This document shows, piece by piece, positions 1-64,000 of a DNA stretch of 64,000 nt. Made by a program: the position numbers and the translations under genes. Origin of the DNA: Chloroflexota bacterium (GTDB lineage: Bacteria > Chloroflexota > Dehalococcoidia > Lucifugimonadales > UBA2985); contig JAPPHY010000011.1 of assembly GCA_028877205.1 (NCBI GenBank), forward strand, positions 17,218-81,217. The letters run 5' to 3'. How positions within the stretch are numbered: position 1 is the first letter of the stretch; every line of letters starts with the position of its first letter. The notes under the pieces are model-generated. The model was not told the origin of the DNA. It was given only the letters and a program-made list of their open reading frames with translations, and searched no databases.

Positions 1-1000
1 GCTGGCTGGGAGTAACCACGTTCACCACCACCATCTGGTCGCCCCGTCTGCCCTTGGCCGAGTATGGCACTCCCCTGCCCTTGATGCGGAACTCGGTACC
101 GGACTGTGTGCCGCCGGGGATTCGCAGAGTCTCCGGCCCGTTGAGCGTGGGAACCTCAAGCTCATCGCCCAGCGCCGCCTGCGCGAAGTTAATGGGCAGC
201 TCCAGGAGGATGTCGTGGTCCCTGCGGGAGAAGACGCCGTGGGGCTGCACCACCAGGTTCAGGTAGAGGTCGCCGGGTGTTCCGCCGTTGGAACCCGCGT
301 CGCCCTCGCGGCTGAGGCGGACCTGCATCCCGTCCTCCACGCCAGGCGGGATGTCGACGCGGATGCGCCGCCGCCTTCGCTCGCGTGCGGAGCCGCGGCA
401 GTGGGTGCACGGGCTGGTGATCACACTGCCCTCGCCGTTGCAAGCGGTACATGCGCCCACCTGCGTGAACTGGCCGAAGATGCTGCGCTGCACCCTGCGG
501 ACCTGGCCGGAGCCGTTGCACTGGGCGCACTGGGCCGGCGCGCTGCCCGGCTCTGCGCCGCTGCCCCTGCACTCGCGGCAGGGCTCGACGCGCTCCACGT
601 CAATCTCGCGGTCGATGCCGAACACCGCCTCCTCGAACGTCATGGTGGTTCCAGCGTGTATATCGCGGCCGCGCTGCGGGGCGCGGCGTGCGCGGGCGCC
701 GAACCCGCCGAAGAACGCGTCGAATATGTCGCCGAAGCCGCCGAAGTTCTCGAACCCCTCGAAGCCGCTGCCCCGTCCCGCGCCCATGTGCCCGAAGCGG
801 TCGTACTGCGCCCGCTTCTGCGGGTCGCTGAGCACCTGGTAGGCAGCGTTGATCTCCTTGAACCGCTCCTGCGCGCCGGGATCCTTGTTCCTGTCCGGAT
901 GGTACTCCAGCGCCAAGCGCCTGAACTTGGTCCTGATGTCCTCCTGGGACGCGCTGCGAGGCACGCCGAGAACCTGATAGAAGTCTTTCTGGTTGGCCAT
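1..1000 (-). CDS. dnaJ: Molecular chaperone DnaJ. The C-terminal end runs off the window start, so it is absent from the ORF track.
   Basis: Own minus-strand translation from ATG at 1000-998: MANQKDFYQVLGV...LEYHPDRNKDPGAQERFKEINAAYQVL (J domain with HPD). G/F linker GFEGFENFGGFGDIFDAFFGG. Four zinc motifs: CRECRGSG, CAQCNGSG, CTACNGEG, CTHCRGS. Confidence 0.93.
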   Translation of the reverse strand, partial: MANQKDFYQVLGVPRSASQEDIRTKFRRLALEYHPDRNKDPGAQERFKEINAAYQVLSDPQKRAQYDRFGHMGAGRGSGFEGFENFGGFGDIFDAFFGGFGARARRAPQRGRDIHAGTTMTFEEAVFGIDREIDVERVEPCRECRGSGAEPGSAPAQCAQCNGSGQVRRVQRSIFGQFTQVGACTACNGEGSVITSPCTHCRGSARERRRRRIRVDIPPGVEDGMQVRLSREGDAGSNGGTPGDLYLNLVVQPHGVFSRRDHDILLELPINFAQAALGDELEVPTLNGPETLRIPGGTQSGTEFRIKGRGVPYSAKGRRGDQMVVVNVVTPSQ

Positions 1001-1192
1001 GCTGCTAATCTGTCCAAACGTGGAATTGACCAACCTACATTATATTGCACGCCGAATACAGAGCACAACCTGAGCCGGGCGCACGTCGGTTGCGCCGGTG
1101 CCTACCTTGGAGTAGATTACGGAAGCTCCCGCAACTCACGATCGCAGGCCCAGCAGACATCTCCGATTGGTAGCAGGGAGGCAACGCCCAAC

Positions 1193-3808
1193 GTGCGTCA
1201 ATCACCGAGTCTCGTATTAGTCACCCTGGCTGCGACAGCAGCGCTGCTGCTCGCGTCCTGCACCGCGGCGCCGACGCCCACGCCAACGGCAACTCTCGCA
1301 CCCACGCCATCGCCTGCACCGACGCCCACGCCTGCGCCAACGCTCGACGACACGACGGACGCGGAGAGGGAGGTGCTGGTGATGCTGTACTTCGCCACGG
1401 GCGGCGCGCACTGGGGCAGCAACAACAACTGGCTCAGCGACGCGCCGCTGGGCAACTGGTTTGGGGTCGACACGGGGGAGGATGGCCGCGTGGTGAGCCT
1501 CTACCTGTGGGGCAACGGCATGAGGGGAGAGATACCGCCGGGGCTGGAGACTCTCGAACGCCTGCGATGGCTCGAGCTAGGCAACAACGGGCTGCACGGG
1601 GAGATACCGCCGGAACTGGCCACGCTTGCCGATCTGCAGACGCTGTCACTCGGAGCCAACCAGCTGACGGGCGAGATCCCACCGGAGTTGGGCCAACTCT
1701 CCAACCTAGAAGAGCTGCGCCTCAGCAGCAACAGTCTAAGCGGCAAGATACCGGTGGAGCTTGGCGAGCTGTCCAGCCTGACTGATCTGAGCCTCTCCGA
1801 CAACAGCCTAACCGGGAGCATCCCGGCGGAGCTCGGCAGGCTCAACGAGCTGGAATCACTGCGACTCAACGGCAACCTGCTGAGCGGGGAGATTCCGCCG
1901 GCGCTGGGCAACCTCTCCAGCCTGAGGCAGTTGGACCTACGCCACAACCGGTTGAACGGGGGCATACCGCCTGAACTTGGCGATCTCCTAGAACTCCAGG
2001 TGCTTGCCCTGAGCGATAACCATTTGAGCGGAGCTATACCACAGGAGCTGGGCAACCTCCGCAACCTGCGTGAGCTCGCGCTGAGCAACAATCGGTTGAG
2101 CGGGGAGATACCGCCGGAGCTCGGCGAGCTATCCGACCTGCGGCATATCCGGCTCGCGGGCAACTGGTTCTCGAGGTGTGCACCCGAATGGCTGCTCAAC
2201 GTGCCGAACAACGACCTAGAGGAAATGGGCCAATCCTTCGGCAATTCGGTCTCAACTCAACCATCCACCGCGTCTGCGGAGTGGACCGCGCTTGCGGCCC
2301 TGTACTGCGCCACGAGCGGTACAACCTGGAGGGACGACACGAACTGGCTTAGCGATTCGCCTCTGGGAGAGTGGTACGGGGTCACCACGGACCAAGGCGG
2401 CCGAGTTGTGAAGCTGAAACTGTCGGAGAACCGTCTTAGCGGGAAGTTGCCGCCGGAGATCGGAAATCTCTCCAGCCTGGAGGAGTTGTCCCTCTCTCGC
2501 AACGAGCTCACGGGCGAGATTCCTCCTGAACTGGGCAGTCTCACAAAGTTGACACTGCTCAATCTCAGCAGAAACGAGTTGACCGGTGAGATGCCGCCGG
2601 AGCTCGGAAGCCTTGTCGACCTGCGGAGACTGTATCTTGACGTCAACGAGCTGAGCGGCGCGATTCCGGCGGAATTTGGCAGCCTCGTCAACCTGGAGAA
2701 CCTGATTCTCACCGCCAATAAGCTCAGCGGCCCGTTGCCGCCGGAGCTTGGACATCTCGCCAAATTGGAAGGACTCTATCTGGGATTCAACGAGCTTGAG
2801 GGTGAATTGCCTGCGCAGCTAGGCAATCTCGCCAGCTTGGAGAACCTGATTCTACCCTCCAACCGGCTCAGCGGCGTAATACCGCCAGAACTGGGCCGGC
2901 TTGTCAACCTGGAAGCGCTGCACCTCTACGGCAATCACTTGAGTGGAGAGATACCGCCGGAACTCGGAAGTCTAGTCAATCTCGATTGGCTGGACCTTTC
3001 CAGCAATGAGTTGAGCGGCGGAATTCCTCCTGAGCTGGGCTACCTCACCGGCCTGGTAACGCTTACGCTCGGGTCCAACCCGTTGGGCGGAGAGATTCCG
3101 CCGGAACTCGGAGGTTTAGCTGAGCTCCATTGGCTTGACCTTTCCGGGAGCGAGCTGAACGGGCCAATTCCGCCGGAGCTGGGCAATCTGGCCAACCTCC
3201 GAACCTTGTTTCTTTGGGGAAACGAGCTTAGCGGGCCGATACCGCCGGAGCTGGGCAGGCTCTCCAGCCTGCAATATATGGACCTCATGTACAACCAGTT
3301 GAGCGGACAGATACCGCCGGAACTGGGCAGCCTCACGAATCTGAACATCCTGAGTCTCAGAAGGAACGAACTAAGCGGCGAGATTCCGCCGGAGCTAGGC
3401 AACCTCGCCAGGCTGGAAGTATTGGACATCGACAGTAACGAACTGAGTGGAGAGATTCCGCCGGAACTGGGCAGGCTCGCCAACCTCAGATACCTGGTTC
3501 TGTCAGACAATATGCTGAGCGGTGAGATACCGCCGGAGCTGGGCAATCTAGCCAATCTTGAATCACTGAATCTGTCTGACAACAACCTGAGCGGAGAAAT
3601 ACCGATTGAGTTGGGCGATCTCTCCAAGCTCGAATCCATTTCTCTGTCGGACAACCACTTGAGCGGGGAGATTCCACCGGAGCTGGACAATCCCCCCACA
3701 CTGCGCAGTCTCTACCTCTCCGGCAACCGGTTTACGGGCTGCATCCCACCTGAGCTAACTGGCGTTCTCACCAACGATCTCTACCAGCTCGGGCTGCCGT
3801 TCTGCTAG
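1193..3808 (+). CDS. Exported lipoprotein with two tandem modules of plant-type 24-residue leucine-rich repeats (about 10 + 19 repeats)
   Basis: GTG at 1193 is in frame with the 215..3808 ORF, with RBS GGGAGG at about 1176-1181. Signal/lipobox VLVTLAATAALLLASC, then a PTPTPT linker. Repeat consensus LxxLxxLxLxxNxLSGEIPPELGx. Two cap segments: WLSDAPLGNWFGVDTGEDGRVVSLYL and WLSDSPLGEWYGVTTDQGGRVVKLKL. The part of the ORF upstream of 1193 is antisense to dnaJ. Confidence 0.85.
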   Translation: MRQSPSLVLVTLAATAALLLASCTAAPTPTPTATLAPTPSPAPTPTPAPTLDDTTDAEREVLVMLYFATGGAHWGSNNNWLSDAPLGNWFGVDTGEDGRVVSLYLWGNGMRGEIPPGLETLERLRWLELGNNGLHGEIPPELATLADLQTLSLGANQLTGEIPPELGQLSNLEELRLSSNSLSGKIPVELGELSSLTDLSLSDNSLTGSIPAELGRLNELESLRLNGNLLSGEIPPALGNLSSLRQLDLRHNRLNGGIPPELGDLLELQVLALSDNHLSGAIPQELGNLRNLRELALSNNRLSGEIPPELGELSDLRHIRLAGNWFSRCAPEWLLNVPNNDLEEMGQSFGNSVSTQPSTASAEWTALAALYCATSGTTWRDDTNWLSDSPLGEWYGVTTDQGGRVVKLKLSENRLSGKLPPEIGNLSSLEELSLSRNELTGEIPPELGSLTKLTLLNLSRNELTGEMPPELGSLVDLRRLYLDVNELSGAIPAEFGSLVNLENLILTANKLSGPLPPELGHLAKLEGLYLGFNELEGELPAQLGNLASLENLILPSNRLSGVIPPELGRLVNLEALHLYGNHLSGEIPPELGSLVNLDWLDLSSNELSGGIPPELGYLTGLVTLTLGSNPLGGEIPPELGGLAELHWLDLSGSELNGPIPPELGNLANLRTLFLWGNELSGPIPPELGRLSSLQYMDLMYNQLSGQIPPELGSLTNLNILSLRRNELSGEIPPELGNLARLEVLDIDSNELSGEIPPELGRLANLRYLVLSDNMLSGEIPPELGNLANLESLNLSDNNLSGEIPIELGDLSKLESISLSDNHLSGEIPPELDNPPTLRSLYLSGNRFTGCIPPELTGVLTNDLYQLGLPFC

Positions 3809-4015
3809 GCGGCGAAACTACGGCACAAGATTCTGCCCGCCTGCAATCTCTCGTAATCCTCGAGCCTCGAATGTGCCCGGGCTGGCAGTCTGCAGTTAGC
3901 TCCAAGAGCATGTGCCAAACTGCTACAGCTCGCCCTCAATAGACACCACGCGCGAGCTAACCTTGGACACGGTCTTCGAGTGTTGTACGGATGACCGAGG
4001 TCTCATTCAAGGCTA

Positions 4016-5362
4016 TCAGCATTCATCACCTGTGAACACGGCTCTGTCAGAACGGTTGCCTCTAGACATAGTTCCAAGCAAGTGTCCGCTTTCGTCAAAT
4101 ACAGGGGATCCTGAGTCGCCTGGTACGGCATAAGCATCTGCAATAATGTCCTTGCCTCGAACATCCTGTACGATCCCGGATTCCATCCGCAATTCTCCTG
4201 AACCGTATCCCCAAAAGAAGATTTCCTGGTCCGTTTGAGCGGGAGCGGAGGCCCTGAAAATGGGTTGAAGCGACAAGTCGGATAAAGATTGGGGAGAAAT
4301 GCTCAATCGAGCTCTGTCTATAGAAGCGCAGTGCTTCACGGGAGTTGCCGCAATTCGACTTTCGCTTCCTTGTAACTGAACTTCGATGCTCCCACATTCG
4401 TTTTCGTCCGCAACGATGTGATGTACGGTTAAGACTAGGCCCTCTTCGGCATCTACGATGATGCCAGTGCCCTTCGACCCAGTGGAGAATATCGAATTGG
4501 GTGTGCAATATACCTCGACTACATTCGCACTCAGTTTCTGAATCGATATGGAGGGATTCATCTCCAACTGCATTCCCTCGAATTCGCATCTAAACATATG
4601 GATGCGGCTCGAATACCCATGATCCCCGCTGACTCTTCCGATGACGGAGACGTGTTCCCCTCTCGTCAATTCTAGAGCCACACTAGTGTCTGCGTAGTAG
4701 CAATACAAGCTTTGTGGCCAGTATTCATCGCGGGAGGGAGTGAGGGTGACATAGTGCTCCTCTACCTCATCCACATAGCCCGATGTGGACACGGAGATTT
4801 TTCCATTCTCTTGGTACCGGAACCTAGCATTTGCGCGCACCTTGTTTTGGTAGTAGTCCTCCAAGAACTCGGCTAGTCCTAACTGGATAGGCATAGGGGT
4901 CGGGGTTGCGGTGGGAACTAGGGTTGGCGTTGGAGGAGGTGTCGCGGTAGGAAGAGGATTCTGAGTCGGGATCGCTGTTGAAGTGAGAATTGGTGCCGGG
5001 GTTGCGGTAGGGGTACGGCCGGGAGACTCTGTGGAAATATTGTCGTCACCTTCTGTGCCTACAAGAGCCCCAACGATGGCCAGCATGACGAACAAGCCAA
5101 TGAATCCCCCGCAACCAATTCCTCCCCACTTCAGGATCCTCTTGAATCCGCCTCCTTGGTTTGTGGTCCGAGCATCTCGGCTGATGTCCGAAAGGGAATT
5201 CCTGACAGGTGTTCCGCAACGTTGGCAGAACGATTGCCCTGGTGAGAGCCCCGTCCCGCATTTGACGCAGACGGTAGGGCCATTTACAGGAGCCCCGCAG
5301 CGCTGGCAAAAGGAATGGCCTGGAAGAATCTCGCTACCGCACTTACTACAGTTTGCCACCAC
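4016..5362 (-). CDS. Membrane-anchored trypsin-like (S1) serine protease with an N-terminal double zinc ribbon and an OB-fold (tRNA_anti-like type) domain
   Basis: N-terminus CSKCGSEILPGHSFCQRCG...CVKCGTGLSPGQSFCQRCG. TM segment WGGIGCGGFIGLFVMLAIVGALV. Pro/Thr linker. OB-like block YYQNKVRANARFRYQENGKISVSTSGYVDEV...VSVIGRV. Protease motifs LVLTVHHIV and VPGDSGSPVFDESGHLLG. Locally AT-richer (one 60-nt line at 4501 counted 26/60 GC). Confidence 0.8.
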   Translation of the reverse strand: MVANCSKCGSEILPGHSFCQRCGAPVNGPTVCVKCGTGLSPGQSFCQRCGTPVRNSLSDISRDARTTNQGGGFKRILKWGGIGCGGFIGLFVMLAIVGALVGTEGDDNISTESPGRTPTATPAPILTSTAIPTQNPLPTATPPPTPTLVPTATPTPMPIQLGLAEFLEDYYQNKVRANARFRYQENGKISVSTSGYVDEVEEHYVTLTPSRDEYWPQSLYCYYADTSVALELTRGEHVSVIGRVSGDHGYSSRIHMFRCEFEGMQLEMNPSISIQKLSANVVEVYCTPNSIFSTGSKGTGIIVDAEEGLVLTVHHIVADENECGSIEVQLQGSESRIAATPVKHCASIDRARLSISPQSLSDLSLQPIFRASAPAQTDQEIFFWGYGSGELRMESGIVQDVRGKDIIADAYAVPGDSGSPVFDESGHLLGTMSRGNRSDRAVFTGDEC

Positions 5363-8821: not shown

Positions 8822-9847
8822 CTAGTCCGGCTTGCGAGCGTGGACGAAGTACATCGGCGTGAAGATGCCGAGACTGCCGGCGTCGACCATGGCCCGGGCG
8901 CACAGGTTCAGTGTCTCCGCTACTCGTACCGAGCCCTGCGGTGCAAGGCGTACGGCCTCGAGCACGCGGAGCGTATTGGTCGTTATCCAGCGTCCGACCG
9001 CGGTGCTGCGGAAGCTGGCGAATGACAGCCCGGAACCCACGAGCGGCTGATACCAGGGAATCGATGGGCCCGGCTGCGTGGCCAGGTCTCGCGCCTCCAG
9101 CACCTCGAATCCGACCTTCTGAAACGCGTCGTCGACCGTTGCCTGATCGTCGATCACGAGCAAGGCACCGCCCAGCTGAAGATCAGCCTTGATCCTGACG
9201 TGATTGGGGTCGTTGGGGTCAAACCGCTCCGTCATGCAGTACTCGTAGACGCCGAAATGGCCTCCCGGCTTCAGGAGGCGGAAGGCCTCGCCGTAGATGC
9301 TGGACTTGTCCGGCGCGTGGGCCGACGCCTCGATGGAGTAAACAGCATCGAATGACCCGTCAGGAGCGTCAACGTGCAGGAAGTCACAGAGCATGAACTC
9401 GGCCAGGTGCGTCAGCCCCGCCTCTTCAGTGAACCTGCGGGCGTGCTCCAGCTGGTAGGCGCTGGTGTTCACGCCAACGATCCTGGCCCCGCAGTGGCGG
9501 GCGATCTCCAGCAGCGGCCCACCGACGCCGCAGCCAAGGTCGGCGACCACCATACCGGGCTTCAGTTCCAGCGCGTCAGCTAAGTTTCGCTCATGCCTGG
9601 CAATCGACTGCCTGAAGCTCTCGCCCGGAACGCGGGGCGCAAAGTGAAAGGACCGGCCCCATCCATACTCGTAGAAGTCCGTGGCGAGGTTGTAGTAGAG
9701 GTTGCTGACGTTCTTCTCGGCGCTCTCGGCGGCCTTTACGCCGCCGTCCCTGGCGGCAGTGAAGTCCTCCTCATACTCGCGGACGGTCGAGGCGATTACA
9801 GAATCTCCTGGCTTTTCCTTCAGTGTCCTGGAGAGCCTGAATGGCAT
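8822..9847 (-). CDS. Sterol C-24 methyltransferase (Erg6/SMT)-family SAM-dependent methyltransferase
   Basis: Collinear with yeast Erg6 as I recall it. YYNLATDFYEYGWGRSFHF (SMT region I), ADLGCGVGGP (SAM motif I), YSIEASAHAP, LLKPGGHFGVYEY, IPWYQPL, and C-terminal FTPMYFVHARKP (Sterol_MT_C-like). Confidence 0.8.
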   Translation of the reverse strand: MPFRLSRTLKEKPGDSVIASTVREYEEDFTAARDGGVKAAESAEKNVSNLYYNLATDFYEYGWGRSFHFAPRVPGESFRQSIARHERNLADALELKPGMVVADLGCGVGGPLLEIARHCGARIVGVNTSAYQLEHARRFTEEAGLTHLAEFMLCDFLHVDAPDGSFDAVYSIEASAHAPDKSSIYGEAFRLLKPGGHFGVYEYCMTERFDPNDPNHVRIKADLQLGGALLVIDDQATVDDAFQKVGFEVLEARDLATQPGPSIPWYQPLVGSGLSFASFRSTAVGRWITTNTLRVLEAVRLAPQGSVRVAETLNLCARAMVDAGSLGIFTPMYFVHARKPD

Positions 9848-9952: not shown

Positions 9953-10696
9953 CTAATTCCTGTAGGACGAGTCCTTCCGGTCGATCGTGCGCAGGAGCCA
10001 GGCCCACTCCAGGTCTACGGGCTCCCTGTCTGCCAGGGCAGCAGCCTGTTCAATGGCTGGCAAGGGCGCCCGGCGGATGGCTTGGCCGGTCGATTGGGCC
10101 AGCACCTGGACCTTGCACGCCTGCTCCAGCTGCCACATCCTGAGCCACGCCTCAGCGACGGAGCGGCCCACGGTCAGCAGGCCGTGATTGCGCATGATCA
10201 TCGCATTCTTGTCGCCGAGGTCGGTCACGAGCCGTTCTCGCTCGTCGATGTCCACGGCCACTCCCTCGAACTCGTGGTAAGCGACGCGCTCGTGAAACTC
10301 ATAGCCGTCCTGCTGAAGCGGCATCAGCCCTTTCGCCAACGCCGACACCGCCATGCCGTATGGCGTGTGGGTGTGCATCACGCAGGTCACGTCGTGCCTG
10401 GCTGCGTGTATGGCGGAGTGGATGACGTAGCCGGTGACGTTTATTCTGTGATCGCCTTCGTCGAGGATGTTCCCGTCCATGTCGATCGTGACGAGGTTCG
10501 AAGCCGTGACTTCCTCGTACCCGAGGCCGTACTCATTGATGAGGAACTGGTCCTCCGTGTCCGGCACACGCGCCGTGATGTGGTTGTAGATGAGGGATGT
10601 CATGCCGAAGTGGTCGGTGAGGCGATATGCGGCGGCCAGGTCTACGCGGGCCTTCCACTCGGCATCGGGGAAGTTGCTTCGCTCATCCTGCGTCAT
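9953..10696 (-). CDS. Class II aldolase/adducin family protein
   Basis: GYVIHSAIHAARHDVTCVMHTHTPYGMAVSAL...MRNHGLLTVG. Confidence 0.85.
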   Translation of the reverse strand: MTQDERSNFPDAEWKARVDLAAAYRLTDHFGMTSLIYNHITARVPDTEDQFLINEYGLGYEEVTASNLVTIDMDGNILDEGDHRINVTGYVIHSAIHAARHDVTCVMHTHTPYGMAVSALAKGLMPLQQDGYEFHERVAYHEFEGVAVDIDERERLVTDLGDKNAMIMRNHGLLTVGRSVAEAWLRMWQLEQACKVQVLAQSTGQAIRRAPLPAIEQAAALADREPVDLEWAWLLRTIDRKDSSYRN

Positions 10697-10943
10697 AGGT
10701 AGCTCCTTGTCTCATGTGCCGCCGCGCAACCTACGTTGTGCCGGAGCGACACGGGTCAGAGTCTCTCCCGAATGGTACCGCCTGGTGACTGCCCCGTCCA
10801 GCGGCTGCATTGGTCGATCGTGCGCGGCCTGCCGGTCGTCGCCGGCCACGACCTTCGTACTCCTGTTTCGCGGGCAAGGCCCGTGATAACATGGTGCTCG
10901 GCCACCTAACGGCACCTGAACGCTGGCAACACAGGAGTAGCCC

Positions 10944-11138
10944 GTGGGTATTTCGGGCGTGAAGGCCCTGACCTTTGACGTATTCGGTACCGTGGTCGAC
11001 TGGCGCGGAAGCATCATCCGCGAGGGTGAGCAGCTGGGCAGGGCCAAGGGCATCGACGTCGACTGGTCCGAGTTCGCCGACAGGTGGCGTGCGGGCTACG
11101 CCCCCGCAATGGCCCGCGTGCGGAGGACCGCCGCGTGA
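10944..11138 (+). pseudogene. Truncated 5' fragment (about 61 codons) of a type II haloacid dehalogenase gene. It is a diverged duplicate of the start of the intact gene at 14528.
   Basis: MGISGVKALTFDVFGTVVDWRGSIIREGEQLGRAKGIDVDWSEFADRWRAGYAPAMARVR matches residues 1-60 of the 14528..15241 product. Similarity ends at 11125 and a stop follows at 11136-11138. Confidence 0.85.
10956..11125 (+). repeat. Left copy of the ~170-bp imperfect direct repeat flanking the island (partner at 14540-14709)
   Basis: Hand alignment gives 10 mismatches in about 170 nt, and 7 of them are synonymous third-position changes. Confidence 0.9.
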
Positions 11139-11436
11139 GGCTCGCCGGGGATGTGCGCCAGCTCCGTCGACTCGACAAGGGGCATCCGACTGAGGGCATC
11201 GAGTAGCAATCGGTCAAGGATCGCAATGCGTTGAGCGTAGCAGAGCTACGCCAACATCGGCATCTCTTAACGAAAAATCCCATTTGCAGCAAACGCCGAT
11301 GACAAATTTGACGTCTTGACGAAACATAGGCCGATGGCTCATATTCCAGAGAGATTGAGGATACATCACAATGACCAGCGGGAGACTCGTCCCATGATAG
11401 GAAAATCTGACTGCCCACTAGTTCGAGGAGGACCAG

Positions 11437-12552
11437 ATGGTCAGCCTAGAAGCTAACGAGGGCGACAAGATATCGGCGATCGAAGCGGATGTGGAGGTTG
11501 AGGACCAAGACGTCGATTCAGTTGCGCCGGTGCGCTACGAGATCACCAGCTTCGGCGTAGACTTCGATGTAGAGGGGCTCTTCCGTCGCCTCGAACGAGG
11601 CGAAATCGCAATTCCAAAATTCCAACGGAACTTCGTCTGGAGTCTCAGACACTCCTCTAGATTCATCGAATCCTTGCTGTTGGGTCTGCCCGTTCCCGGC
11701 ATCTTCTTGTCTCGAGACTTCGACTCGGACAAGTACGTGGTGATCGACGGACAGCAGCGCCTCAAGAGCCTCCAGTTCTTCTGCAATGGAGTGTTTAACC
11801 CATCGGCTGAAGCAAACACACAGCGGACGTTCAAGTTGACTGGGGTTCAGCAAGAGTTCGAAGGACTAACGTACCAAGAGTTGTCACCCCGCGACAGGTT
11901 CCGTATCGACAACTCCGTCATTCACGCAACGGTCGTCAAACAGGACGCTCCGGCCGAGGACAATACAAGCGTATACCATGTCTTTGACAGGATTAACAGT
12001 ACTGGCCTACGCCTGTCAGCCCAAGAGATTCGCAGTGCTATATGTCACGGCAAGTTCATTGACAAGCTTGGCATCCTCAATGAGCATCCAAGCTGGAGGT
12101 CGATGTTCGGAAGAGTACACTCTCGGATGAGGGACCAAGAGCTTATACTCCGTTTCTTGGCATTTTTCTTCGACGAGGCTCTCTACAACCCTCCTATGTC
12201 AGAGTTCTTAACCGTGTTCGTTCAGAAGAATCGGAATCCACAGGATGATTTCCTTACGGAGTCTAATGACATATTCACCCAAACAATGGATGCCTTCATG
12301 GGTGCTCTGGGTGAACGCGCGTTCCGTATTGAACGGGCACTGAACGCTGCCATATTCGACTCGATGTCTGTCGGCTTGGCTAGGAGGATTGCCTCGTCGA
12401 ACAACCTTCCTGAGCCCGAGCCAATTAAGGCGGCCCACCGTTCTTTAATTGAAGATCGAGACTACTTGGAGGCGGTATCACGATCCACTGCAGATGAGCG
12501 GTCTGTTTCCATACGCATGACGAAAGCCGTCGAGCGCTTCGCAGTTCTGTGA
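11437..12552 (+). CDS. DUF262 (ParB-like nuclease/NTPase superfamily) protein without a DUF1524/HNH C-terminal domain
   Basis: IPKFQRNFVW and VVIDGQQRLKSL (DGQQR encoded at 11746-11760). Also FDRINSTGLRLSAQEIR and MRDQELILRFLAFF. RBS GAGGAGG before the ATG. AT-richer than the flanks (the line at 12181 counted 27/60 GC). Confidence 0.8.
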   Translation: MVSLEANEGDKISAIEADVEVEDQDVDSVAPVRYEITSFGVDFDVEGLFRRLERGEIAIPKFQRNFVWSLRHSSRFIESLLLGLPVPGIFLSRDFDSDKYVVIDGQQRLKSLQFFCNGVFNPSAEANTQRTFKLTGVQQEFEGLTYQELSPRDRFRIDNSVIHATVVKQDAPAEDNTSVYHVFDRINSTGLRLSAQEIRSAICHGKFIDKLGILNEHPSWRSMFGRVHSRMRDQELILRFLAFFFDEALYNPPMSEFLTVFVQKNRNPQDDFLTESNDIFTQTMDAFMGALGERAFRIERALNAAIFDSMSVGLARRIASSNNLPEPEPIKAAHRSLIEDRDYLEAVSRSTADERSVSIRMTKAVERFAVL

Positions 12553-12553
12553 G

Positions 12554-13057
12554 ATGCGTAATCGGGAACTCGCAAGCCAACTCGACTCGCTGAAGTCCCT
12601 GCTGGCAGTTACAGACACCGCCACGGGCGGCAATATAGAGCTCGTTGGTCATTGGGGAAGGTATCTCTGTGTCTTGACCGCCGGCTTCCTCGAGAACGCT
12701 CTAAGAGAAGTGTTTAGCGAATTCGTGAGAAATGCTGCTAGTCCTCAGGTAGCTAGTTTCGCCACTAGGAGATTGGAGCGAATCTCCAACCCAAAATCGG
12801 GCCGCTTCATCGAAACCGCACAAAGCTTCGACTTCGTATGGGCTAGCGACCTAGAAGACTTCCTGAATGCGGACGGAGGACGGAGGCGAAATGCTATAGA
12901 TTCGATTATGAGCAACCGCAACCGGATCGCCCATGGTGAGAGTGTTCAAGTATCCGTTGGCCGGGTCCGGGAGTACCTACCCGGTTGCATTCAAGTTGTC
13001 GAGTTTATTGAGAATCAGTTGCTCGGCACTACATCTCACGAGCCTAGAGCGGTTTGA
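12554..13057 (+). CDS. HEPN-domain protein (R-x4-H; resembles the MAE_28990/MAE_18760-type HEPN family), predicted RNase
   Basis: All-helical 167-aa protein. IDSIMSNRNRIAHGES contains R122-N-R-I-A-H127 (12917-12934). The ATG lies 1 nt after the DUF262 stop (TGAgATG). Confidence 0.65.
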   Translation: MRNRELASQLDSLKSLLAVTDTATGGNIELVGHWGRYLCVLTAGFLENALREVFSEFVRNAASPQVASFATRRLERISNPKSGRFIETAQSFDFVWASDLEDFLNADGGRRRNAIDSIMSNRNRIAHGESVQVSVGRVREYLPGCIQVVEFIENQLLGTTSHEPRAV

Positions 13058-13347
13058 CACGATAGGCAGTGGGAATCGAAACCCTCATTTGGTTATAGGA
13101 GCAAGCCGCAACCGTAGGAACCCTCCGTCGGACTGCGGTGCGACGATACTCCATGAAGCAGCGGGAGACGCTCCTTAGTGAGGTGAGTCGCATCAGTCCA
13201 CCGAAGCCGAGAGCTGAGAATGAGCGGTTGACTGACTCAGGCCCCGGACTATGTGATCCCCCAAAATAGTGCGTCAAGAGTGTAAACTAGGACGTGAAAT
13301 ACCCCTTGGAGGACAGGTCAGCTGGCCGATTCTTTATCGGTAACCCC

Positions 13348-13683
13348 CTAGCTCCTTTTCTCTCCCCTTCCCAAGAAAGTCAAGGCTGTTGCGATTAGCA
13401 GAAGTATCGTAGCCAGTATATATGCCAAATAAACGGCAACAAACCCGACGACGGCCGATACGAGCATCAGGCCCGCCGCCAGCTTTGGCTTTGCCATTGA
13501 CAGCGCGGCCCCAACCAATCCAGCGATGGATGCAGCCAAGGCTACGAAGCCGCCCGAAGTTACTGTTCCCGCGTCCTCGGCCCCTAGTGCTCCACCAATG
13601 CCACCAACAATCAAGGCAAATATGGCGCCGACGAATCCTGCTATGGAACCCAAGACGCCTATGATTAGTCCTGCTATTCGCAA
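13348..13683 (-). CDS. Small Gly/Ala-rich integral membrane protein (3-4 TM helices)
   Basis: MRIAGLIIGVLGSIAGFVGAIFALIVGGIGGALG...LMLVSAVVGFVAVYLAYILATILLLIATALTFLG. Lies 15 nt downstream of the lipoprotein gene. Confidence 0.6.
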   Translation of the reverse strand: MRIAGLIIGVLGSIAGFVGAIFALIVGGIGGALGAEDAGTVTSGGFVALAASIAGLVGAALSMAKPKLAAGLMLVSAVVGFVAVYLAYILATILLLIATALTFLGRGEKRS

Positions 13684-13698
13684 TGAGTACCCCCTTCT

Positions 13699-14145
13699 TC
13701 ACTCTCCCTTGAGGATGCTGCACCCCACTACATCAATGGTGAAGGGGTCTCTATCCTCTCCCTCGTCTCCCTTGCCGCGCAGAGTTACCCGGTCCCCCTT
13801 TGCGAGCGATGCTATATCGTTCAGGTGGCTTTGACTGAAGTGGCATCGCACGTTTTCGAGCGTGAAGTCTCCAGTAACCAAGTCCACCCAATAGGCCTGG
13901 CCGTCGCCACCGCCAAAGTCGCTCACCGTGCCACTGAGCGCCAGCACCTTCCCGTCGTACTTCTGGTCGGCAGCAATCCTGTTGCTCTCATAATCGTCAT
14001 ACATTTGCCTGGCAGTGACCCGTACCTCGATGGGCGAATCGGCGATCTCTAGTTCTACCTGCTCCACTTCTTCTTCAGATACGGTGCAGGCTAGCAAAAC
14101 TGCCACTACAAGTACCAGGCACGCGGCGAATCTGGAGTAATTCAA
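13699..14145 (-). CDS. Lipoprotein with an OB-fold (tRNA_anti-like type) domain
   Basis: Signal/lipobox FAACLVLVVAVLLAC. MYDDYESNRIAADQKYDGKVLALSGTVSDF...VRCHF...GDRVTLRGKG. Same domain pattern as the middle of the 4016..5362 protease. Confidence 0.7.
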   Translation of the reverse strand: MNYSRFAACLVLVVAVLLACTVSEEEVEQVELEIADSPIEVRVTARQMYDDYESNRIAADQKYDGKVLALSGTVSDFGGGDGQAYWVDLVTGDFTLENVRCHFSQSHLNDIASLAKGDRVTLRGKGDEGEDRDPFTIDVVGCSILKGE

Positions 14146-14176
14146 TCAAACCTCTCCGAACGAATGGACTTTACTT

Positions 14177-14201
14177 ATAGTCTATGGACTCATAGTCTAT
14201 G
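14177..14201. promoter_or_regulatory. Putative operator: two copies of the palindromic ATAGTCTAT(G), 15 bp apart, in the divergent intergenic region
   Basis: ATAGTCTATG at 14177-14186 and 14192-14201. ATAG-N-CTAT is self-complementary. It lies between the lipoprotein gene (start 14145) and the XRE gene (start 14223). Confidence 0.35.
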
Positions 14202-14222
14202 CATTGGTAGCGTCACTGTCAA

Positions 14223-14453
14223 GTGGACGCATATCAATCGGCGTTTGGCCGACACATACGCTACATACGGATGCTGCAGGGTTCCACCCAAGAGGAGGTG
14301 GCACACCGTGCTGGCATTCATGTGACCTACCTTTCCGGTATTGAGAGAGGCCAGAGAAACCCGTCACTGAAAAACATCCGTGCCATTGCTAAGGCCATGA
14401 ACGTAAACACTGCCGACCTGTTCTCATTCGAGCCGGAAAGTAGCTCCGAATAG
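14223..14453 (+). CDS. XRE-family helix-turn-helix transcriptional regulator
   Basis: FGRHIRYIRMLQGSTQEEVAHRAGIHVTYLSGIERGQRNPSLKNIRAIAKAMNV. GTG start. Confidence 0.85.
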   Translation: MDAYQSAFGRHIRYIRMLQGSTQEEVAHRAGIHVTYLSGIERGQRNPSLKNIRAIAKAMNVNTADLFSFEPESSSE

Positions 14454-14527
14454 TGAGCATCATGGGTAAATGTGCTCACATAGAGATCGGATAGCTGGAT
14501 CGGCGGCTGGCAATCTAGGAGAAGCAC

Positions 14528-15241
14528 ATGAGCATATCTGGCGTGAAGGCCCTGACCTTTGACGTATTCGGCACCGTGGTCGACTGGCGCGGCAGCATCA
14601 TCCGCGAGGGTGAGCAGCTAGGCAGGGCCAAAGGCATCGACATCGACTGGGCTGATTTCGCCGACAGGTGGCGTGCCGGCTACGCCCCCGCGATGGCCCG
14701 CGTGCGGAGCGGCGAGCTGCCCTGGACCAGGATCGACGTGCTGCATCGCATGATCCTTTATGGCCTGCTTGATGACTTCGGCGTCACGGGCCTCAGCGAA
14801 GACGAGAAGGATCGCTGGAATCGGGTGTGGCACAGGCTCGCTCCGTGGCCGGACTCCGTGCCCGGCCTGACACGGCTGCGCCAACGCTTCATCGTGGCCA
14901 CGCTCTCCAACGGCAACGTGGCTTTGCTCACCAACATGGCCAAGCACTCAGGCCTGCCCTGGGACTGCATCCTCTCCGCCGAGCTGGTGAGGCGCTACAA
15001 GCCCGACCCGGAGACCTACCTTGGCGCGGCGGACCTCCTGGGCTTGCGACCGGAGGAGGTCATGATGGTGGCGGCCCACAAGGGCGACTTGAGGTCGGCG
15101 CAGGCGGTGGGCCTCAGAGCCGCGTTCGTTGCGCGACCCGACGAGTTCGGCCCGAGTGTCGAGGTGGACGTGACGCCCGAAGCGGATTTCGACGTCAACG
15201 CCGCGGACATCGAGGAGCTCGCTATCAAGCTGGGCTGCTAG
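14528..15241 (+). CDS. Haloacid dehalogenase type II (HAD superfamily), intact copy
   Basis: ALTFDVFGTVVDW (DxxGT motif)...ATLSNGN...RYKPDPETY...AAHKGDL. Confidence 0.85.
   Translation: MSISGVKALTFDVFGTVVDWRGSIIREGEQLGRAKGIDIDWADFADRWRAGYAPAMARVRSGELPWTRIDVLHRMILYGLLDDFGVTGLSEDEKDRWNRVWHRLAPWPDSVPGLTRLRQRFIVATLSNGNVALLTNMAKHSGLPWDCILSAELVRRYKPDPETYLGAADLLGLRPEEVMMVAAHKGDLRSAQAVGLRAAFVARPDEFGPSVEVDVTPEADFDVNAADIEELAIKLGC
14540..14709 (+). repeat. Right copy of the ~170-bp imperfect direct repeat (partner at 10956-11125)
   Basis: See the left copy. Similarity to the left copy ends at the same codon (61). Confidence 0.9.
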
Positions 15242-15360
15242 ATCCGAGTGGCGCGTTACAAGGGCGTTGGGTGAGCGAGCATCTGGTATAGTAGTGGCTG
15301 GTGTCTTAGCGAAGTTGTTTTCGACTTCATGAACCCAGGGATTCCATAAAGGAGGGCGTC

Positions 15361-16251
15361 GTGCCTGTAGAGCAGCATTCAGAAGCGATGGAGCGTATAG
15401 CGTCGCAGTCTCAGGAAGTGGAGTGGTTGGGCAGCGGGTATGGCGGCGGGGCTGTGGTGGAAGGGCCAGTGTGGTGGAAGGAGGGAGGATACCTCCTGTT
15501 CAGCGACATCGGCAGTAACCAGATACTGAAGTGGGCGCCCGGCGAGGGCGTCACCGTGTTCCAGGAGCCGTCCAACAACTCGAACGGCCTCACGCGCGAT
15601 CCACAGGGGAGGCTGATCGCCTGCGAACACGGAGCACGCCGCGTGACCCGCCAGGAACCCGACGGCAGCACGACGGTGGTGGCCAACAGCTATCAGGGCA
15701 GGCGGCTGAACCGCCCCAACGACGTGGTGGTGAAGTCCGACGGGTGTGTATACTTCAGCGACCCGGGAGCGCCGGAACCGAACCTGGAACTGGACTTCTC
15801 GGGTGTATACCGGGTCTCCCAGGATCTTGGGACGCTGACCTTGCTCGTCCGGGACTTCGTCATGCCCAACGGACTGGCCTTTTCCCCTGACGAAGGCGTC
15901 CTGTACGTAAACGATTCCCGCCGCGGGCTCATTCGGGCCTTCGACGTCCTGCCCAACGGCGTGCTTGCCCTTTGGACCGACCGCGTCTTTGCGGATGTGA
16001 GAGGCGAGCGTCCCGGAGTAGCCGACGGCATGAAGGTGGATGTTGAGGGCAACCTGTACTGCGGGGGGTCCGGGGGCATATGGGTCTTCGACCCCTCAGG
16101 CAACCACCTGGGTACCATCGATCACGGGGCGACGGCTACAACCAACATGGCCTGGGGTGACGACGACTGGAGGACGCTGTACTTCACCACTCGCGATAGC
16201 CTGGGAAGGGTCCGGTTGGGCATACCGGGTATACCGGTGCCTGCGACCTAG
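15361..16251 (+). CDS. SMP-30/gluconolactonase/LRE-like beta-propeller protein
   Basis: VEGPVWWKEGGYLLFSDIGSNQILKW...RLNRPNDVVVKSDG...PNGLAFSPDE...ADGMKVDVEGNLY. GTG start with RBS AAGGAGGG. Confidence 0.85.
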   Translation: MPVEQHSEAMERIASQSQEVEWLGSGYGGGAVVEGPVWWKEGGYLLFSDIGSNQILKWAPGEGVTVFQEPSNNSNGLTRDPQGRLIACEHGARRVTRQEPDGSTTVVANSYQGRRLNRPNDVVVKSDGCVYFSDPGAPEPNLELDFSGVYRVSQDLGTLTLLVRDFVMPNGLAFSPDEGVLYVNDSRRGLIRAFDVLPNGVLALWTDRVFADVRGERPGVADGMKVDVEGNLYCGGSGGIWVFDPSGNHLGTIDHGATATTNMAWGDDDWRTLYFTTRDSLGRVRLGIPGIPVPAT

Positions 16252-62571: not shown

Positions 62572-64000
62572 ATGTTACGAAAAGCGTTGCACCTTAGGAC
62601 CCTAGTCGCAGTGCTGCTCGGCGCCGTGATGGTGTCGGCCGTGGCGTGTGGAGAAGATCCCACGGCCACGCCCGTGCCCACCAACACGCCGCAGCCGACG
62701 GCAACGCCTGAGCCCACGCCCACCGAGGCGATGATGGAGCCCACCGCAATGATGGAGCCCACCGAGGCGCCAGTGGCGGACACGCAGACCAACCTCGGTC
62801 TGAGCGCCCAGGCCATTATGGACCACCCCAACTTCAAGGCGGAGTGGGGCGAGCCTCAGTACGGCGGCACCATTGCGATGCGCACCAACGTGCCGGTCAG
62901 GACCGGCTCCCCATACCGGGGCAGTGGCAACAGCCACTACGTGGGCAACCAGATGACTTTCCGTGACACGCTTGTCATGGTGGACCCGTGGATCGGCTGG
63001 TCCGGCGGCATCCAGGGCAACGTGGCAGAGAGCTGGGAGGTCTCGGATGACCAGCTCACCTACACCTTCCACCTGCGCCAGGGCATCAAGTTCCACGAGA
63101 AGACCGACAACCACCAGGTAGACATGCCCGGATTCGGCCAGGAGCTCGTGTGCGAGGACGTTGCCTTTCACATGAACTTCATCGGCTCCGACCGCTACTG
63201 GGACGAGGGCGGTTCGCTCTCCTCTCTGGTTCCCGGCGGTACAACCTGGACCTGCCCGGACGGGCCTGAGGGCTACACCGCCCAGGCCGTGCTGGACAGC
63301 GGCATCCCCTTCCCCGGGATCCTGAACCTGCTCAGCATCCCCGGCGTGTACGGAATCACCAACGCAGAGTGGCTGGCGTGGTCTCTGGAAACGCTAGACG
63401 TCCAGGCGATCCGCACATACCCCGAGTACACCATCCACCTGGGTACCGGGCCCTTCATGCCCTCCGACCTCACACCCGAGGTGGTAGCACAGGGCGTCCG
63501 GAACCCCAACTACTGGAAGGAAGGCCTTCCCTTCCTGGACGTCTTCGAGTACCACACCATAGCCGACCCTGCCACGGCATTCGCCAGCTTCTCCACGGGG
63601 AAGATCGACCTCATGGGGCACGGCAGCGGCTCTCCCTATCCCGCCCAGGTGGAGCAGGCCAACCGCGACTTCCCTGAGCTGGGCTTCGCGCCCAACCACT
63701 ACTTCGGTGGCAGGGCCGTGGGATTCAACACCGAGAAGCCCCCGTTCGACGACGTGCGTGTGCGCCGTGCAGTGAACTTGGTCATGGACCGGGAAGCCTG
63801 GAAGGAATTCCAGAACATCCCCGGCACCGACCTCTACGCCGGCTACGTCCCGGCGGGCTTCTTCAACGCCGAGGGACGGGCCTTCGACCCGATGGGCCAC
63901 TCGGTTGAGGAGATTCTCCAGTGGGACGGATGGCGACAGCCCAAGGATGATGACATCGCTCTGGCCGTTAGTCTCATGGACGAGATTTACGGCCCCGGTG
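62572..64000 (+). CDS. ABC transporter substrate-binding lipoprotein, family 5 (peptide/nickel type). The 3' end is beyond the window, so it is absent from the ORF track.
   Basis: Own translation from the ATG at 62572 (RBS GGAGGGG): MLRKALHLRTLVAVLLGAVMVSAVAC-GEDPTATPVPTNTPQPTATPEPTPTE...YGGTIAMR...AESWEVSDDQLTYTFHLRQGIKFH. Confidence 0.8.
   Translation, partial: MLRKALHLRTLVAVLLGAVMVSAVACGEDPTATPVPTNTPQPTATPEPTPTEAMMEPTAMMEPTEAPVADTQTNLGLSAQAIMDHPNFKAEWGEPQYGGTIAMRTNVPVRTGSPYRGSGNSHYVGNQMTFRDTLVMVDPWIGWSGGIQGNVAESWEVSDDQLTYTFHLRQGIKFHEKTDNHQVDMPGFGQELVCEDVAFHMNFIGSDRYWDEGGSLSSLVPGGTTWTCPDGPEGYTAQAVLDSGIPFPGILNLLSIPGVYGITNAEWLAWSLETLDVQAIRTYPEYTIHLGTGPFMPSDLTPEVVAQGVRNPNYWKEGLPFLDVFEYHTIADPATAFASFSTGKIDLMGHGSGSPYPAQVEQANRDFPELGFAPNHYFGGRAVGFNTEKPPFDDVRVRRAVNLVMDREAWKEFQNIPGTDLYAGYVPAGFFNAEGRAFDPMGHSVEEILQWDGWRQPKDDDIALAVSLMDEIYGPG

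Follow-up and report, generated by a model that had tools for sequence, protein, structure and literature searches.

Defence genes are gained and lost at variable spots without mobility genes of their own, and genes can be disrupted by illegitimate (microhomology) recombination. Campbell-type or site-specific integration rebuilds its target gene, and cis-mobilisable elements are integrase-less and flanked by attachment (att) sites. Here we analysed a 64-kb stretch of DNA (64,000 nucleotides (nt) of contig JAPPHY010000011.1, hereafter the window) from an uncultured Chloroflexota, a Dehalococcoidia-type metagenome-assembled genome, in which a two-gene DUF262-HEPN cassette lies between two copies of the 5′ end of a haloacid dehalogenase (HAD) gene. 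The nearest described systems are PD-T4-2, whose domain content is DUF262 plus a PF18735 HEPN (PMC10952713) and which defends E. coli from phage T4 (Vassallo et al. 2022, PMC9519451), and Menshen (NsnABC), which requires the ABC ATPase NsnB and a third gene (PMC12065111). The first-pass annotation of the window had treated the 3.4 kb between the HAD copies as foreign throughout. Our analysis indicates a mosaic rather than a single island, and we give a probability of roughly one half to the reading that two HAD copies flanked an ancestral three-gene block and that the left one lately lost its 3′ part to the incoming cassette.

The cassette (11313-13057, + strand) was delimited by Pfam, PADLOC and homology to seven other loci (L089-L095). 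Its first gene (11437-12552, +) encodes a DUF262/ParB-like protein in which Pfam finds GmrSD_N alone (1.9e-28), with no DUF1524/HNH nuclease domain, and which contains the DGQQR motif (VVIDGQQRLKSL). The second gene (12554-13057, +) starts 1 nt after the stop codon of the first and encodes a RiboL-PSP HEPN protein of 167 amino acids (aa) (PF18735, HEPN_RiboL-PSP, 7.4e-17; 62.3 bits against a cut-off of 28.4) with the Rx4H motif RNRIAH. A promoter scan paired a TTGACG box with CATATT, giving a promoter-like site at 11316-11345. The arrangement of two adjacent genes, a DUF262/ParB-like gene without the DUF1524 nuclease followed by a PF18735 HEPN gene, resembles that of PD-T4-2, and the first protein matches the PADLOC model PD-T4-2_A (2.7e-50, profile positions 19-361 of 363). 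The pair departs from PD-T4-2 in that its HEPN partner matches no PADLOC model at E<=0.01, in that the higher score of the DUF262 protein is with the Menshen NsnA model, and in that the host is a Dehalococcoidia metagenome-assembled genome instead of E. coli. With Menshen it shares the NsnA match, the best PADLOC match of the protein (4.5e-68, profile positions 34-377 of 385), and a predicted sensor architecture of ParB-DUF262 plus a C-terminal DNA-binding region; however, neither NsnB nor NsnC is adjacent (no ABC ATPase within 10 kb), and the HEPN partner is found instead. A Menshen system was ruled out, the only downstream gene of the operon being that for the 167-aa HEPN protein. The cargo thus appears to be a PD-T4-2-like pair in its putative role, probably an anti-phage system in which the ParB-like NTPase would act as DNA sensor and the HEPN RNase as effector, and it adds such a pair to an uncultured Dehalococcoidia lineage that is probably sponge-associated. 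A second HEPN candidate near 63712-63921 (weak tblastn match, E=0.001) was dropped, there being no supporting open reading frame (ORF).

The duplicated HAD gene start was then compared in detail. At an offset of 3584, positions 10956-11125 and 14540-14709 align without gaps and differ at 10 of 170 nt, the same count as in the hand alignment made earlier. Local alignment and self-BLAST extend the repeat to 10922-11125 and 14506-14709 (204 nt, 90.2% identity, E=4e-75). It is the sole long-range repeat of the window; in self-BLAST the other self-matches fall inside one repetitive gene (1500-3800). The left repeat copy (10922-11125, +) consists of the HAD ribosome-binding site (RBS) and codons 1-61 and belongs to a 64-aa ORF (10944-11138) in which the HAD frame is lost after codon 61 and a stop follows 4 codons past the break; this stump is 87-89.5% identical at the nt level to the HAD genes of relatives. 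The right repeat copy (14506-14709, +) is the 5′ end of an intact gene for a 237-aa haloacid-dehalogenase-type hydrolase (14528-15241, +; Pfam Hydrolase 7.8e-16, HAD_2). ORFs and Pfam therefore agree with the first-pass annotation that the left copy is broken at codon 61 and the right one whole. That annotation had also called the RBS regions and first four codons different between the copies; they are indeed far more diverged than the core, with 9 differences in 32 nt, but alignment shows them to be homologous.

The resident part of the interval was recognised through the OB-fold lipoprotein encoded there. The protein collection holds a single close relative of it, encoded on a Logan contig of 2129 nt from a short-read assembly (L110), whose lineage is about 14% diverged. 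To the left of the HAD stump lie a Class II aldolase gene (9953-10696, −; Pfam Aldolase_II 1.9e-51), which serves as the native left anchor, and an intergenic region with the 5′ leader of the left copy (10697-10938, +). To the right of the cassette, collinearity with L110 defines a block of three genes (13256-14515) encoding a 111-aa membrane protein (13348-13683, −; a weak, sub-threshold Pfam match to DUF4064, 0.0012), the OB-fold lipoprotein (13699-14145, −; Pfam tRNA_anti-like 1.7e-16) and a 76-aa XRE-type regulator (14223-14453, +; Pfam HTH_3 1.2e-17). In the reverse complement of L110, positions 3-635 correspond to window 10179-10810 (aldolase and upstream region, 85.6% nt identity) and positions 822-2080 to window 13256-14515 (collinear, 86.4%), the two matches being separated by 186 nt. 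Within the leader, 10697-10810 falls inside the first of these strong matches, 10811-10851 is an indel relative to L110, and 10852-10938 aligns to L110 positions 636-722 right up to the RBS of the left HAD copy (score 60; shuffled controls 20.5 +/- 3.6, with 0/500 reaching 60), indicating that the leader upstream of the left copy is native. On the right side, homology to L110 ends at 14515, one base before homology to the HAD relatives starts (14516). The remaining 99 nt of the L110 spacer showed no significant match to the window regions tested, the HAD gene included, and the last 49 nt of L110 are not HAD and likewise had no significant match to the regions tested. L110 thus has the order aldolase, leader, block; HAD copies are missing from both sides, and DUF262-HEPN genes are missing as well.

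Divergence between the window and L110 was measured gene by gene as synonymous divergence (dS) and the ratio of nonsynonymous (dN) to synonymous divergence (omega). The aldolase gave dS 0.71 and omega 0.07, the OB lipoprotein dS 0.56 and omega 0.09, the XRE regulator dS 0.36 and omega 0.11, and the membrane protein dS 0.29 and omega 0.20; GC content of the block is 0.535 in the window and 0.539 in L110. L110 joins aldolase and leader to the block, and block and aldolase have diverged to a comparable degree under purifying selection; most simply, then, the three block genes are old residents of the locus despite their low GC. The interval between the HAD copies is AT-richer as a whole, as had been noticed (GC 0.50-0.57 over 11250-14500; flanks 0.62-0.68, whole window 0.636), and the assignment of this DNA to a foreign source holds for 11126-13255 and fails for 13256-14515, which is present in L110. 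The same synteny contradicts the description of all 3.4 kb as foreign and of the block genes as accessory cargo, given that these reside beside the aldolase in L110 at dS 0.29-0.56 compared with 0.71 for the aldolase itself.

The DUF262-HEPN cassette shows a quite different distribution. Seven loci carrying it (L089-L095) were fetched, representing at least five unrelated contexts, and their similarity to the window was confined to 11301-13039 (77-83% nt identity) and started at the TTGACG box in every locus. The neighbours vary and include metabolic genes, toxin-antitoxin and restriction genes, and IS66- and rve-type transposases, and one locus (L094) has an rve-type insertion sequence between the two cassette genes. 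According to the gene tables, the genes for the membrane protein, the lipoprotein and the regulator occur in none of the seven. Relatives of the DUF262 protein with 75-84% identity are common in the metagenome assemblies of ENA, and none was found in viral contigs. These distributions point to a mobile cassette. In L093-L095 it lies about 260 nt downstream of the stump of a serine recombinase gene, which keeps residues 9-86 of a 531-residue protein (full length in L100), the same pattern as that of the HAD stump. A small ribbon-helix-helix (RHH) gene followed by the large serine recombinase gene (530-570 aa) is intact in L100 (2038-3857) and L101 (368-2307), whereas in L093-L095 (about 9150-9630) only the first ~85 codons of the recombinase remain, close to the upstream side of the cassette.

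The left junction of the foreign DNA could be placed through the DNA that precedes the cassette promoter, segment X (11126-11312, +), which is non-coding or a gene remnant and was recognised by its homology to a cassette flank in L091. Window 11121-11245 aligns with positions 3884-4007 of L091, an unrelated contig in which this stretch precedes the cassette (score 55; shuffled controls 25 +/- 3.5, maximum 40). Because the DNA right of 11125 matches this flank, the alignment indicates that the foreign DNA begins at the break in HAD codon 61, where the two sequences overlap by a few bases, CGGAG in the window and CGAAG in L091. On the right the boundary is more diffuse, since the match with the other cassettes fades shortly after the HEPN stop codon and native sequence resumes at 13256. 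Across the loci, too, the ends of the conserved cassette DNA differ on the left and fade on the right, and neither inverted repeats nor target duplications were detected around the foreign segment (11126, 13255). By these junctions the foreign part of the interval spans about 11126-13255, or ~2.1 kb, and the right HAD copy does not abut it, contrary to the earlier view of the two copies as the ends of one insertion. The precomputed Pfam annotation contains no integrase, recombinase or transposase domain in the ~10 kb on each side of the locus, in line with the first-pass statement that no integrase or transposase is present. A transposon or insertion sequence was ruled out by the lack of terminal inverted repeats and of a target-site duplication, and an integrative element by the L110 synteny of 13256-14515, by the lack of an integrase within 10 kb and by the lack of a related element at HAD in the loci tested.

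On the antisense strand of 11126-11260, the GC-rich start of the foreign segment, there is an open stretch (..QRIAILDRLLLDALSRMPLVESTELAHIPGEPHAAV..) of winged-helix-like character that lacks a start codon and continues into the HAD stump. It gave no Pfam hit, and the similar DNA of L091 is not open in this frame; the stretch is possibly what is left of a gene carried along with the cassette.

The substitution pattern bears on when the left copy was broken. Codon comparison confirmed that seven of the ten core differences are synonymous, where 2.6 would be expected under random mutation of the HAD sequence (P=0.0036). Over codons 5-60 the two copies show dS 0.20, dN 0.024 and omega 0.12; adding codons 2-4 raises dS to 0.28, and the overall ranges are 0.11-0.14 for omega and 0.02-0.04 for dN. 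The proposal that the copies diverged mainly under purifying selection is upheld by these values, which indicate that both were once parts of working genes and diverged while functional. If one branch had been dead since the copies split, ~37% of the changes should be synonymous, and 7/10 would then have P ~0.035 by a binomial calculation from the synonymous and nonsynonymous site counts, indicating that for most of the divergence time the stump was part of a working gene, be it in this genome or another. Had the truncation been as ancient as the separation from L110, dN would be expected at roughly 0.15-0.35, and the observed value is about ten times lower; because it lies so far below this expectation, we infer that the truncation of the left copy is a young event.

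We therefore favour, at the probability of about one half stated above, a history in which the ancestor carried two HAD genes around the resident block, one at site A behind the aldolase leader and one at site B behind the regulator gene. The second copy could have come from local duplication or from import from a close relative, and both copies diverged while functional. Some 2.1 kb of foreign, AT-richer DNA (11126-13255) would then have entered the site-A copy and replaced everything after codon 61, recently and presumably via illegitimate recombination at the few-base microhomology CGGAG, without a recombinase, terminal inverted repeat or target-site duplication. The intact site-B copy would now supply the hydrolase function, and the stump would survive because the event is young. 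Such an event is ordinary genome turnover, a defence operon landing in a redundant gene copy at a variable spot. Like other defence genes at variable spots, the cassette is a small operon with a promoter of its own; its many settings are unrelated to one another and often rich in transposase, restriction-modification and toxin-antitoxin genes, and it shows no recombinase, inverted repeats or target duplication and leaves gene stumps at its upstream side. Unlike the usual insertions of this kind, it struck a gene of which a second copy lay nearby, which produced the misleading look of a bracketed island. The locus offers a dated example of a defence cassette gained at the cost of a redundant gene copy; its main value lies in the corrected annotation, and it alters no general principle.

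Several observations weigh against this history. The tail between the cassette and the native block (13058-13255, 198 nt) is not accounted for by it: this tail has no significant similarity to the cassette flanks of the other loci or to L110, and it gave no tblastn match with the HAD protein, the HAD nucleotide sequence not having been separately compared. The insertion must be assumed to have been accompanied by deletion of the 3′ part of the left copy, and tblastn with the HAD protein and self-BLAST found no remnant of that part elsewhere in the window. A full-length HAD gene of the left type was found neither in the 90% cluster to which the intact HAD protein belongs nor in the stump's own cluster, and no other adjacency of aldolase and HAD occurs in 80 species-level genomes. 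The alternative arrangement is represented by one 2.1-kb short-read contig, so that the ancestral state is judged from two lineages without an outgroup; and as L110 lacks HAD at both sites, two ancestral copies need two gains or two losses.

Among the other explanations, one would have the cassette land in a HAD gene elsewhere, after which a fragment made of the HAD 5′ end and the cassette moved to site A, so that the stump is a hitch-hiker. The cassette does travel with variable flanking DNA, L110 has no HAD gene at site A, and the start of the stump coincides with the −12 boundary from which the HAD homology to relatives runs. This route nevertheless requires two illegitimate junctions, one of them exactly at the RBS behind the native leader, and leaves to chance the 94% match of the 170-nt core to a gene just 3.4 kb away; we consider it unlikely.

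In the integration model that follows from the first-pass annotation, a 3.4-kb element, comprising 11126-14527 and a surrogate HAD 5′ end, would have inserted into the one HAD gene then resident, either site-specifically or by a single Campbell-type crossover in the ~200-nt homology, both copies being made at once. The geometry has its appeal, for the left copy, with its native leader, ends where the homology ends, and the right copy starts where the homology starts and is a whole gene; GC is low across the whole interval, and the copies differ as alleles of two lineages do. The locus also resembles Campbell-type and cis-mobilisable elements in its direct gene-end repeats, of which one is truncated and the other whole, and in the lack of an integrase between the two. 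Yet part of the DNA between the repeats is ancestral, the foreign segment stops short of the right repeat, and neither a conserved att core nor an integrase was found. The right-hand 1.26 kb of the supposed element adjoins the same aldolase leader in L110, which has no HAD there, at a divergence like that of the aldolase. If the integration preceded the split from L110, the stump should have decayed neutrally, and dN is only 0.02-0.04; if it followed the split, three genes must have reached one spot twice. Integration in a single step, or one-sided homologous replacement at the HAD gene, is thus contradicted by L110 together with the low dN, and this course of events appears quite improbable. 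Gene-end repeats around AT-richer DNA resemble the scars of a single integration, but they do not prove one insertion, and here one related contig indicates that a third of the interval is old and resident, low GC alone being no mark of recent arrival.

The left copy might also never have worked, having been made as a partial copy of the right 5′ end during insertion of the cassette, for example by template switching in repair. The motif GCTGGCAA before both copies could have acted as microhomology in such a process, and the lack of a 3′ remnant of the left gene would be explained. A fragment copied at that time would hardly be 6-10% diverged with a strong synonymous excess, however (7/10 synonymous against ~37% expected for a neutral branch, P ~0.035), and the leader of the left copy is native and not copied, which leaves little room for this explanation. 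Misjoining of copies from two co-existing strains, suggested by the end of a short-read contig (L087) inside the repeat at 10985, as at a branch of a de Bruijn graph, can be dismissed almost entirely, as three independent assemblies reproduce the arrangement over 18-20 kb, their contigs (69, 88 and 132 kb) showing 0-1 mismatch, which makes a chimeric assembly of the locus unlikely, and as a 204-nt, 90% identical repeat is easy for an assembler to resolve. L087 itself (Logan SRR10996925, 2148 nt) is identical to the window and ends at window 10985, within a 32-nt stretch identical between both HAD copies, as expected if both copies are present in sample SRR10996925 and split the assembly graph.

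The sites at which the HAD copies sit share a short motif. Both copies are preceded by CGCTGGCAA or GGCTGGCAA (window 10921-10931 and 14505-14515), and in the reverse complement of the HAD-less L110 site B (about 2068-2080) reads GCTGGCAATC and site A (about 700-712) reads GCCGGCGAC. The motif GCTGGCAA that precedes both copies is native at site B and nearly native at site A, and it could have served as microhomology in the arrival of the HAD copies. At site B of L110 the motif seems to be overlapped by the stop codon of a reverse-strand reading frame. A more general proposal can be framed from these features and those of the cassette, although we hold it to be a long shot: the DUF262-HEPN pair would be a recombinase-free mobile unit among sponge-associated bacteria that lands preferentially in genes in sense orientation, leaves a 5′ stump (HAD here, the serine recombinase in L093-L095) and gains read-through transcription beside its own promoter, and, relatedly, single genes such as HAD and SMP30 would be modules whose sharp edges lie a few bases beyond the coding sequence, and a recombination route not yet described may join them at short GCTGGCAA-like motifs.

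Relatives of the HAD gene were surveyed for an ancestral site. The closest homologues of the intact HAD protein are 86-91% identical and are encoded after a ribulose-phosphate epimerase gene; in the four closest (L083-L085 and L096, HAD at 10001-10714 in each) an arginine-biosynthesis cluster and the epimerase gene precede HAD. These loci match the window only over the HAD gene itself, from about −12 to +15, with homology beginning at window 14516 (L083, L001), and they were set aside as uninformative about the site in the window. The spacer before HAD ranges from ~50 nt to 1.1 kb among them, and the downstream DNA is different in each genome, which places HAD at the edge of a variable region in the closest relatives too. 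An empty site with aldolase, HAD and SMP30 adjacent, as envisaged in the first-pass annotation, was looked for in 80 HAD-centred loci of species-level genomes and not found; neither aldolase, SMP30 nor any island gene lies near HAD in these. Among the loci tested there is also no other case of a HAD fragment beside the cassette or the three-gene block. A scan of JGI metagenomes with the aldolase returned merely 52-71% relatives on short contigs, and exact look-ups of the aldolase and SMP30 proteins returned the same population only.

The right neighbour of HAD is an SMP30/gluconolactonase gene module (15324-16251, +; Pfam SGL 3.4e-49). Exactly over 15324-16251, that is from 37 nt before the start to the stop codon, it is 88% identical at the nt level to a gene on a multi-copy element, and the identical protein of this relative was found in nine different contexts (L097-L105). 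The repeated element that carries the relative measures at least 4.1 kb and has a fixed right end 357 nt past the stop codon, and in 7/9 contexts the gene adjoins a transposase-like HTH_29/HTH_32 gene of 487-519 aa, a partner that is absent in the window. Near the left end of the window, ORF 215-3808 (+, 1197 aa) contains many diverged internal repeats at 1500-3800 (64-74% identity) with offsets that are multiples of ~72 nt, and it is followed by another AT-richer stretch (GC 0.50-0.56, 3500-5250); the ORF probably encodes a repetitive surface protein.

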